A stretch of 64,000 bases of DNA from Escherichia coli (GTDB lineage Bacteria > Pseudomonadota > Gammaproteobacteria > Enterobacterales > Enterobacteriaceae). Below, piece after piece: positions 50,122 through 50,416 of the stretch. The notes under the pieces were generated by a model, which made no database searches, was not told the DNA's origin, and worked only from the letters and a program-made list of their open reading frames with translations. The DNA lies in NCBI GenBank assembly GCA_902500055.1, contig GCA_902500055.1_4131.1. One strand, 5' to 3'. Both the position numbers and the translations under genes were made by a program. Numbering within the stretch: position 1 is the first letter of the stretch; every line of letters starts with the position of its first letter.

Positions 50122-50416
50122 TGAGCCATCTGTGAGTCGAACACAGTACCTAACGATTCGTATAATCTATAGTTTTCACTATAGTACGGACTATATCATC
50201 ATCCCATAGGGATGCCGGACGCTAATGATGTATTACACAGTAAGATCGTACTGTACCATCTAGTCTCTGCACCTTCCCAATACGCTTATTGGGCTTGGCT
50301 CAGGATTGTCATCACCATTACGTGTTAAGATTTCCCTGAATTCATCCAGTTTTTCAATCACCATTACTGATGAAAGTCACCATTGTCGATGAGTCGTTTG
50401 CTCTAACCACCGTGAG
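50122..50416 (-). tRNA. tRNA(CAU) (Met or Ile2) interrupted by a group I intron in the anticodon loop
   Basis: Exon 1 50379..50416 (acceptor GGGCCAT, D-arm TAGCTCACGGTGGTTAGAGC, anticodon stem AACGA, CTCAT); exon 2 50122..50158 (AA, TCGTT, T-arm CTGTG-TTCGACT-CACAG, acceptor ATGGCTC). Confidence 0.65.
50159..50378 (-). ncRNA. Group I self-splicing intron (about 220 nt, no ORF)
   Basis: P AATTCAGGGAAA (50331..50342), Q AATCCTGAGC (50298..50307), R CAGAGACTAGATGG (50256..50269), S GATATAGTCC (50188..50197); follows exon U, ends with G. Confidence 0.65.

Follow-up and report, generated by a model that had tools for sequence, protein, structure and literature searches.

A tRNA(CAU) gene of a jumbo coliphage predicted to be interrupted at position 36/37 by a group I intron

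The insertion of a group I intron between positions 36 and 37 of the anticodon loop of a CAU transfer RNA (tRNA) was first described in a tRNA-Ile of Azoarcus. The intron in question, in the pre-tRNA-Ile(CAU) of Azoarcus sp. BH72, was reportedly found by Reinhold-Hurek and Shub in 1992, and is said to belong to subgroup IC3 and to have been solved in crystal structures. The IC3 introns of cyanobacterial, plastid and Azoarcus tRNA genes have no P7.1/P7.2 insertion. In phages, group I introns occur in protein-coding genes such as td, nrdB and sunY of T4 and in genes of Twort-like phages. Here we describe a tRNA(CAU) gene that is split at the same 36/37 site but lies in a phage genome, on the minus strand of a stretch of 64,000 nucleotides (nt) deposited under an Escherichia coli assembly (GCA_902500055.1, contig GCA_902500055.1_4131.1; hereafter, the window). 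The reading we favor, with a probability of roughly 0.8, is that of a functional phage tRNA(CAU), most likely tRNA-Ile2, interrupted at 36/37 by a 230-nt group I ribozyme which contains no open reading frame (ORF).

Bacterial tRNA introns are for the most part of type IC (81%), with a minority of type IA, and IA-type tRNA-Ile2 introns of Pseudomonadota have been listed (PMC13011429). Group I introns are also known in the T-loop of bacterial transfer-messenger RNA (tmRNA) genes (PMC11915505). A review of 2014 stated that all phage introns then known were located in protein-coding genes, despite the many tRNA genes of phages (PMC3984707), and introns in phage tRNA genes are mentioned neither in a 2025 paper on phage introns (PMC11878797) nor in a 2026 survey of bacterial tRNA introns (PMC13011429). 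In the literature covered, outside of which most subscription-only papers lie, no earlier account of a phage tRNA gene with a group I intron was found, and the papers on this phage group do not mention a tRNA intron. A group I intron at 36/37 of a tRNA(CAU) is already known, and the element is mechanistically ordinary; what is apparently new is the phage host, the recurrence across several phages, and the presence of the same family in phage tmRNA and protein-coding genes.

The window intron resembles the Azoarcus BH72 intron in its CAU anticodon, its 36/37 site, the pairing of a 5′ exon CAU with a GUG guide, its small size and its lack of an ORF. The P4–P7 stretches AAAUUCGGCGAAACCUAAG, GAGCCAAGC and GGUGUAGAGACUAGACGG are presumably also similar to those of the Azoarcus intron, for which no citable sequence to align was found. 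Unlike the Azoarcus and other IC3 introns, however, the window intron contains a covarying insertion of 34 nt, P7.1/P7.1a. It is closer in build to other bacterial tRNA(CAU)/tRNA-Ile2 introns, with which it shares the 36/37 insertion (CUCAU/AA), the guide pairing (GGUG/GUGA with UCAU), GNRA-capped P2 and P9, P7.1/P7.1a, P9.0, a near-identical P3–P6 core and the absence of an ORF, the bacterial introns measuring 218–321 nt as placed by ARAGORN. In contrast to these, it is hosted by a virulent jumbo phage rather than a chromosome and falls outside the main bacterial clade.

The split gene and the predicted fold of its intron

An earlier note on this DNA, made from the sequence alone, had proposed a phage tRNA(CAU) gene, split in the anticodon loop by a group I intron and to be assembled from two pieces 220 nt apart. 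The tRNA parts that it named are all present on the minus strand. Exon 1 provides the acceptor 5′ strand (GGGCCAT), the D-arm (TAGCTCACGGTGGTTAGAGC), the anticodon stem 5′ strand (AACGA) and, in CTCAT, the loop nucleotides C32, U33, C34, A35 and U36, whereas exon 2 begins with A37 and A38 (AA) and provides the anticodon stem 3′ strand (TCGTT), the variable region, the T-arm (CTGTG-TTCGACT-CACAG), the acceptor 3′ strand (ATGGCTC) and the discriminator A. CCA is not encoded in this copy. However, the measured gap between the two pieces is 230 nt, not 220 nt, and although the proposed gene end at 50122 stood, the gene starts at 50426 rather than 50416, the earlier boundary being 10 nt short at the 5′ end. 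The window itself comes from an Asteriusvirus-type jumbo coliphage (PBECO4/121Q group) whose closest record is TH47, in agreement with the phage origin proposed.

The intron lies between positions 36 and 37 of the CAU anticodon loop, with exon 1 ending in CTCAT and exon 2 starting with AATCG. It begins with CGACAAUGGUGA / CGACAATGGTGA and ends with AUUAUACG / ATTATACG, and its terminal G (omega-G) is nucleotide 50159. Intronless tRNA(CAU) genes at 93% identity are found in PBECO4, A4, CRJP21, WPEC5 and four Salmonella phages; across the junction these alleles read ACGACTCAT (= AAACGACTCAT) followed directly by AATCGTT, with the junction sequence CTCATAATCG. Because the intronless relatives A4 and PBECO4 read across it, the splice junction is fixed to the nucleotide. 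In phage A4, the gap from the intronless gene to tRNA-Ser measures 7 nt, as does the gap to tRNA-Asn.

Joining the two exons gave a sequence that ARAGORN called as a canonical 76-nt tRNA(cat), which, together with the intronless homologs, confirms a tRNA(CAU) split in its anticodon loop. Without its intron mode, ARAGORN called no tRNA at this position. A scan with intron detection, which the earlier note had proposed as a check, did find the split gene in the unspliced region, but the intron was shifted by 3 nt and the product was called tRNA-Arg(acg). That reading was rejected, as the intron would follow U33 and end in U instead of G, and the intronless homologs read CAT, none of them acg. 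The same program missed the Muenster-type copies entirely and mislabelled most of the bacterial copies as Gln or Arg. Seven GenBank phage records carry the intron, five of which are annotated without any feature at the site and two of which are wholly unannotated. An artefact of assembly or a chimera is effectively refuted already by these independent occurrences, since the same structure, with sequence variation, appears in seven independently sequenced GenBank phage genomes and in four IMG/VR contigs.

The intron interval matches the Rfam model Intron_gpI (RF00028) with 99.1 bits (gathering score 50; E = 1.9e-24), and its homologs score 84–104 bits. The assignment to group I in the earlier note was thus upheld by the covariance model, and additionally by a covarying P1–P9 structure that includes the P7 pseudoknot. 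The four core elements that the note had listed are also present, i.e., P (AATTCAGGGAAA, intron nt 48–59) and Q (AATCCTGAGC, 82–91), which form P4, and R (CAGAGACTAGATGG, 120–133) and S (GATATAGTCC, 192–201), which form P7. As had been noted, there is no intron ORF: the longest ORF wholly inside the 230 nt has 38 amino acids (aa), and none of the peripheral loops holds an endonuclease ORF.

The structure was examined in an alignment of nine intron copies with 6-nt exon flanks, which represent six different tRNA(CAU) exon contexts. The first context comprises the window and Turkey5 (TH47, with an intron identical to that of the window, was not aligned), and the second the Klebsiella phages Muenster and phiKp_21 (the further carriers KP13-7 and RCIP0023 were not aligned). 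The third is Klebsiella phage OU509535, with different exons, and the remaining three are IMG/VR contig L034, contig L143, and contigs L114 and L123 together. From the alignment alone, RNAalifold recovered P1, P2, P3, P4, P5, P6/6a, P7.1/7.1a, P8, P9.0 and P9, with compensatory changes in 35 of 66 pairs. An explicit structure of 70 pairs in 14 helices, with P7 as a pseudoknot, was then compared with controls in which the pairing partners were slid by 1–3 columns and with 500 shuffles. Standard pairs were formed in 94.1% of the cells (31–45% in the slid controls), two-sided changes were found in 34 of the 70 pairs (4–10 in the slid controls), and the covariation score was 0.49 (0.03–0.09 in the slid controls); none of the 500 shuffles reached any of these three values.

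The changes are distributed over the whole fold. P3, P4 and P6a are 100% paired with compensatory changes among the nine copies, two-sided changes affect three of three pairs in P9.0 and six of seven in P9, and the two stacked helices of the P7.1/P7.1a insertion have three of four and four of seven pairs changed on both sides, i.e., seven of 11 together. The catalytic core (P7, J8/7, the U·G wobble and the terminal G) is invariant across copies that differ by up to ~25–35% elsewhere. In P1, the splice-site wobble U-1·G9 is kept in nine of nine copies, while the adjacent C1-G8 pair has become G-C in three. P7 is the guanosine-binding site of group I introns; its core never varies among the copies, and its outer G-C pair is A-U in two of them. 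All nine copies end in G directly before the AA of exon 2. The two-sided pair changes, along with the invariant U·G, P7 core and terminal G, argue that the ribozyme is under selection, and we regard a structurally maintained group I intron in this tRNA(CAU) gene as almost certain. In addition, the minimum-free-energy fold of the 305-nt precursor recovered the acceptor stem, the T-arm, P3, P4, P6, P8 and P9 (z = −2.7).

The P7.1/P7.1a insertion marks an IA-type architecture. Since it covaries, and since P7 is accordingly not joined directly to the P3 3′ strand, membership of subgroup IC3 was rejected. Two other candidates were set aside as well. Rfam placed the P1/P2 of its model in the upstream spacer (50481..50436), which was judged to be an alignment artefact, as the splice site has to lie within the real P1 and covariation is seen in the P1/P2 proposed here. 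The motif UAAUGGUGA occurs three times in the intron, i.e., in the guide, the P2 3′ strand and the P5 3′ strand; this repetition was taken as coincidental, the P2 copy not being kept in the Klebsiella-phage version. The coordinates of the gene, the helices and the neighboring features are collected in Table 1.

Table 1. Coordinates of the split tRNA(CAU) gene, its intron helices and other features of the window (numbers in brackets after helices are intron positions)
Feature	Coordinates	Strand	Remarks
Split tRNA(CAU) gene	50426..50122	minus	Exon 1, intron and exon 2
Exon 1, 38 nt	50426..50389	minus	GGGCCATTAGCTCACGGTGGTTAGAGCAAACGACTCAT; agrees with the intronless gene of A4 and PBECO4 as far as CAT
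Group I intron, 230 nt	50388..50159	minus	Rfam RF00028 match; covariation in 9 homologs
Exon 2, 37 nt	50158..50122	minus	AATCGTTAGGTACTGTGTTCGACTCACAGATGGCTCA; spliced product a canonical cloverleaf (ARAGORN)
P1	50377..50392	minus	Exon UCAU and intron C1 G2 paired with intron U7 G8 G9 U10 G11 A12 (guide GUGA)
P2 hairpin (16–31)	50358..50373	minus	UCAUCA-GUAA-UGGUGA, GNRA loop; 4 of 6 pairs changed on both sides
P3 5′ strand (40–46), P4 (50–55/84–89), P5 (59–80), P6/P6a (91–117)	50272..50349	minus	Rfam alignment; conserved P4–P6 domain holding the P and Q elements
P7 5′ strand (122, 124–128; R element)	50261..50267	minus	Bulged A123; pairs with 50188..50193
P7.1/P7.1a insertion (129–162, 34 nt)	50227..50260	minus	Between P7 and the P3 3′ strand
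P3 3′ strand (168–174), P8 hairpin (175–189), J8/7, P7 3′ strand (196–201; S element)	50188..50221	minus	Rfam alignment, RNAalifold, pair counts
P9.0 (202–204 with 227–229) enclosing P9 (205–222, GAAA loop)	50160..50187	minus	Brings the terminal G to the 3′ splice site
Spacer, 154 nt, tRNA-Ser to split tRNA	50427..50580	minus	Absent from intronless relatives (gap 7 nt; A4 comparison)
Weak promoter-like site	50478..50451		Within the spacer
Best sigma-70-like match	50705..50677	minus	TGGACA-17-TATAAT with TG; 11 of 12 matches; upstream of tRNA-Ser
Free-standing HNH gene, 234 aa	49398..50102	minus	Starts 19 nt after the split tRNA gene; PHROG 14913
HNH gene	46971..47672	minus	Downstream of tRNA-Thr
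tRNA-Thr	47803..47729		
NUMOD4 + HNH_3 gene	52490..53014	minus	Downstream of tRNA-Arg
tRNA-Arg	53119..53046		
Paralogous small ORFs	51969..52455, 53529..53708, 54051..54245, 54306..54485	minus	Three in tandem, with overlapping stop and start codons

Predicted splicing and identity of the tRNA

The intron very probably splices to give a working tRNA, judging from its sequence and structure. The split gene would be transcribed jointly with tRNA-Ser, the HNH gene and tRNA-Asn; a promoter upstream of tRNA-Ser, near 50705, probably starts this transcript, and no terminator-like site was found in 49250..50750 or between the promoter match and tRNA-Asn. The polycistronic precursor is likely processed by host RNases, as far as consensus-level features can tell. 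Within it, the intron would fold into the P1–P9 group I core, and UCAU, the final four bases of the exon, would form a helix with the internal guide GUGA in which the U·G wobble is displayed. The attack after U36 would come from a free guanosine bound in P7, following which the terminal G, placed by P9.0, would take the same site and the freed 3′-OH of U36 would attack at A37. The anticodon stem is assumed, from other pre-tRNA introns, to align the exons. Their joining would yield a 75-nt tRNA body, to which a host enzyme would add CCA, and the ligated junction would read ACGACUCAU followed by AAUCGUUAGG (CUCAU and AAUCG).

A different view of the same locus would be that the intron is a decaying, non-splicing relic and the tRNA a pseudogene, tolerated since the host supplies tRNA-Ile2 and tRNA-Met. 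The locus is indeed plastic, many close relatives having no intron or quite different tRNA(CAU) alleles, and a mismatch in P9 of Turkey5 could be read as decay. However, two-sided compensatory change in 34 of 70 helix pairs, the pairing of 94% of the cells and a catalytic core that stays invariant despite the divergence elsewhere are difficult to reconcile with a relic, and the exons keep every canonical tRNA feature and show a compensatory change of their own (T-stem CTGTG/CACAG versus CGGTG/CACCG). The relic is for these reasons considered very improbable, and a splicing intron in a functional tRNA gene is retained.

The CAU anticodon is shared by tRNA-Met and tRNA-Ile2. The spliced tRNA is identical at 59–60 of 75 positions to ileX and to an ileY-like tRNA-Ile (E. 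coli strain E-1246), as compared with 54 of 75 for the elongator metT and 27 of 75 for the initiator metV. Acceptor nucleotides C4 and C5 and the CGA/UCG anticodon stem are common to the split tRNA, ileX and the ileY-like gene, and the acceptor stem of the Muenster version is exactly that of ileX. The E. coli matches listed from a BLAST search (10 of 534 records, sampled across the ranking) are all annotated as tRNA-Ile. In the ORFs of the window, AUA makes up 28.7% of the Ile codons (20.8 per 1000 codons), a usage several-fold above that of E. coli. We therefore consider it likely, on the basis of these comparisons, that the product is a phage tRNA-Ile2 dependent on host TilS; it would read AUA once its C34 has been changed to lysidine by TilS. 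The tRNA region of Turkey5, a close relative, spans 40 kb, and no other tRNA-Met or tRNA-Ile is annotated in it.

An initiator tRNA-fMet was rejected, as G1-C72 is paired (no C1xA72 mismatch), the anticodon stem AACGA/UCGUU lacks three consecutive G-C pairs, and metV is so dissimilar. An elongator tRNA-Met, spliced in the manner proposed, has more in its favor, in that the label tRNA-Met is given by ARAGORN and, for the intronless homologs, in most GenBank annotations, and the margin over metT is modest. Annotation tools, however, give Met to every CAU anticodon by default, one homolog, in Salmonella phage 7t3, is annotated as tRNA-Ile, and the anticodon stem, like positions 4 and 5 of the acceptor, fits ileX/ileY and not metT. 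Taken with the annotation of the listed BLAST matches, the high AUA usage and the features that exclude an initiator, this makes a tRNA-Met unlikely, and tRNA-Ile2 is the identity used below.

Several points weigh against a functional, splicing tRNA-Ile2 gene. Splicing, ligation and aminoacylation are all deduced from sequence. A P10 pairing of the 3′ exon with the guide was looked for by eye, and no convincing one was seen. One pair of P9 is broken in Turkey5, so that some drift appears to be tolerated. The promoter scan found 10 sites, compared with 8.5 expected in shuffled sequence, and the match near 50705 is one to a consensus only. Finally, the assignment to Ile2 draws on TilS determinants described in the literature and on margins of similarity that are modest, and among the other phage copies those in contigs L114 and L143 resemble Ile2 no more than Met.

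The neighboring HNH gene and probable movement of the intron

Compared with A4, the window has three extras, i.e., the 154-nt upstream spacer, the intron and the 234-aa HNH ORF. The product of this ORF matches PHROG 14913 (HNH endonuclease) with E = 5e-56 and has an HTH-like (helix-turn-helix-like) C-terminal region; it has no match in Pfam. In the window, TH47 and Turkey5 alike, 19 nt separate the split tRNA from the start of this ORF. In RaK2, however, ORF219, which is 71% identical at the aa level, follows an intronless tRNA(CAU), and the same is true of K64-1; the intron but not this HNH gene is present in the Muenster group, and A4 and PBECO4 have neither. Since intron and HNH gene are found in all four possible combinations of presence and absence, they are independent elements, and an obligate unit of the two was rejected.

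In collaborative homing, of which the cyanophage psbA intron with F-CphI is a known example, an intron is paired with a free-standing homing endonuclease. The window locus is similar to such systems in that its intron contains no ORF and directly adjoins a free-standing HNH gene, but differs from such a pair in that each of the two elements also occurs without the other in related phages. A free-standing endonuclease in a phage tRNA cluster is exemplified by SegB of T4 (PMC13096335), and the F-Tfl enzymes of T5 are cited in the annotation of Muenster.

Movement of the intron is suggested by several comparisons. Its distribution is patchy among otherwise very similar phages, and between Escherichia and Klebsiella phages the intron shows 92% identity, as against ~80% for the flanks. 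In Klebsiella phage OU509535 (OU509535.1, 1461-1761), an intron 93% identical over most of its length is located in clearly different tRNA(CAU) exons (GGGACTGTAGCTCAGGGGTGAGAGCAACCGACTCAT), while its P1 loop, P9 and 3′ tail differ from those of the window, which suggests that the intron core may have been exchanged between different tRNA genes. Exon 2 of the window has the T-stem CTGTG/CACAG of the intron-bearing Muenster allele, whereas the intronless Asteriusvirus alleles have CGGTG/CACCG, a pattern that looks like a co-conversion tract. Based on the contrast between intron and flanks, the exon swap in OU509535 and the T-stem shared with Muenster, a DNA-level transfer of the intron between co-infecting phages is suggested. 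The favored route of spread would be DNA-level recombination or homing between co-infecting phages, possibly aided by neighboring free-standing endonucleases.

A stricter proposal joins intron and HNH gene in a single unit of collaborative homing, in which the HNH protein cuts intronless alleles, the intron disrupts its own target and repair copies both. The 19-nt spacing in the window, TH47 and Turkey5 would fit such a unit, as would a different endonuclease-like ORF in the same place in OU509535, the high identity across Escherichia and Klebsiella phages of an intron without its own endonuclease, and the co-conversion-like T-stem of exon 2. However, the HNH ortholog stands beside an intronless tRNA(CAU) in RaK2 and K64-1, this HNH gene is missing from the intron-bearing Muenster group, and two other HNH genes of the window are located just downstream of intronless tRNA genes. 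A joint homing unit is accordingly judged improbable, and two independent elements, with transfer of the intron at the DNA level, remain the preferred account.

Further observations concern the same neighborhoods. The intronless tRNA(CAU) of RaK2 (NC_019526.1, ~1186..1111, minus strand; GGCCCTTTACTCTCAAGTGGTTAGAGAATCCGACTCATAATCGGTAGGCTCTGAGTTCGAATCTCAGAAGGGCCACCA), which lies between tRNA-Ser and the HNH ORF219 as it does in K64-1, is unannotated in the RefSeq record. The ORF of OU509535 starts with MEWRKLYLKELDIYINVSDEGN ~20 nt after the tRNA, and its N-terminus is NUMOD4-type endonuclease-like by eye. The window contains three HNH-type genes 19–56 nt downstream of tRNAs (Table 1), an arrangement reminiscent of the tRNA clusters of T4 and T5, which are rich in endonucleases. 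Small paralogous ORFs (54–64 aa) that start with MTHEEWM or MTHKEWM, at least six in number, are scattered among the tRNA genes. In Turkey5 (PQ471516.1, 16029-16147), a ‘tRNA-Leu’ is annotated at 119 nt, ~30 nt longer than normal; it could be a mis-call or another interrupted tRNA.

The intron family in phages and bacteria

A core pattern spanning P3 to P6 was used to scan IMG/VR and one genome per bacterial species. It matched 98 bacterial contigs, 82 of which hold a placeable tRNA(CAU) split exactly at 36/37, mostly in Gammaproteobacteria (Woeseiaceae; Arenimonas, Luteimonas and Rudaea of the Xanthomonadales; Pseudomonadales). The bacterial tRNA(CAU) introns share the helices of the window intron, including P7.1/P7.1a, and these 82 genes, with a homologous intron after the third anticodon base, bear out the likeness to bacterial tRNA-Ile(CAU) introns that the earlier note had pointed out. 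In IMG/VR, the same core was present in 54 viral contigs, only four of which have it in a tRNA(CAU); others have it in the T-loop of phage-encoded tmRNA genes, and others again in protein-coding genes. A simpler junction pattern, GACTCATCGA-N(2-6)-TGGTGA, was discarded, as 83 of its 84 matches in IMG/VR were due to chance and only L034 was real. One contig of a Thiotrichaceae metagenome-assembled genome (L178, ~2400-2800) has the same intron core in a different tRNA, with exon 1 ending in GGTTAGAGTATCGGCCTGT; as this exon differs, the family also occurs in at least one non-CAU bacterial tRNA. In another bacterial contig, L241, the intron begins with AA, so that the automated boundary is ambiguous between 36/37 and 38/39.

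The tmRNA T-loop introns of phages belong to the same family by their P4–P6 core pattern, contain no ORF and likewise sit in a loop of a tRNA-like structure; in contrast to them, the window intron interrupts the anticodon loop of another host RNA, and the tmRNA copies are not sister to the window clade in the core tree. Such loci were observed in contigs L101 (374-599, plus strand), L109 (3127-3693, minus strand) and L144 (7880-8474, plus strand), and further in L103, L104, L112, L117, L118, L125, L126, L130, L133, L136, L145, L099, L108 and L131. The tmRNA exon of L101 reads GACGCGGGTT before and CGACTCCCGCCACCTCCACCA after the intron, and in L109 and L144 the Rfam calls for tmRNA and Intron_gpI stand side by side. 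L144 also encodes a GOLLD RNA (RF02032, 328 bits; 9693-10107, minus strand) ~1.2 kb from the intron-bearing tmRNA gene.

The closest non-tRNA relatives in GenBank are introns in a Vibrio phage terminase gene, with more matches in psbA of S-CBWM1 and in Staphylococcus phages. The terminase intron of Vibrio phage R16F is 80% identical over nt 31–200 of the window intron. Such phage introns of protein-coding genes are like the window intron in their IA-type build and their patchy occurrence among close relatives, but they split ORFs and use other guides (the terminase 5′ exon of R16F ends in CCCGAU, and its guide differs from that of the window), whereas the window intron interrupts a structural RNA at the anticodon loop. 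The large terminase gene is split by four group I introns in R16F (vB_VpaM_R16F, OP793884.1; 1270-3298) and by three in Vibrio phage 1.187.O (1291-2656), where five or six ‘terminase large subunit’ fragments are annotated; the introns themselves (72–94 bits, Rfam) are unannotated in the records.

A rough neighbor-joining tree was computed from 161 core columns, with 69 taxa bootstrapped, i.e., from a short alignment of a pattern-selected sample with a distance method. A main bacterial tRNA(CAU) clade excluding every phage copy received a bootstrap value of 89/100, the group of the window, Turkey5, Muenster, phiKp_21 and OU509535 a value of 100/100, and L034 with L143 a value of 83/100, whereas all phage tRNA introns together received 0/100. 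The window intron is not inside the main bacterial clade in this rough tree of 161 columns. The Jukes–Cantor distance of the window clade is 0.21–0.25 to phage introns of non-tRNA genes and at least 0.36 to the main bacterial clade; two outlying bacterial copies are also near the window clade, one of which, L241, lies in an ordinary chromosomal neighborhood. The phage copies do not appear to stem from one host tRNA gene by a simple, recent capture, and the CAU/AA site was probably occupied more than once from a phage intron pool.

More tentatively, and as a proposal that we find rather doubtful at present, there may be a shared phage pool of ORF-less group I introns that move among tRNA(CAU) anticodon loops, tmRNA T-loops and protein-coding genes, with phage tRNA(CAU) genes as the vehicle that spreads the 36/37 intron among gammaproteobacterial tRNA-Ile2 genes, or back. 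If true, the sporadic occurrence in bacteria of tRNA introns without an endonuclease, which has long been noted, would have a concrete vector.

The presence of the intron in at least six phage tRNA(CAU) contexts fills a gap stated in the literature. It also reveals a blind spot of annotation, in that a tRNA which probably decodes AUA is missing from the tRNA inventories of seven GenBank jumbo-phage records. The intron itself is a small natural ribozyme of 230 nt without an ORF, in a tractable phage, with isogenic relatives that have or lack the intron ready at hand. One closely related intron family links bacterial tRNA(CAU), phage tmRNA and phage protein-coding genes. Because the family links these three niches, and because cultivable E. 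coli and Klebsiella phages differ only by the intron and/or the HNH gene, the exchange of introns between phages and bacteria becomes testable.

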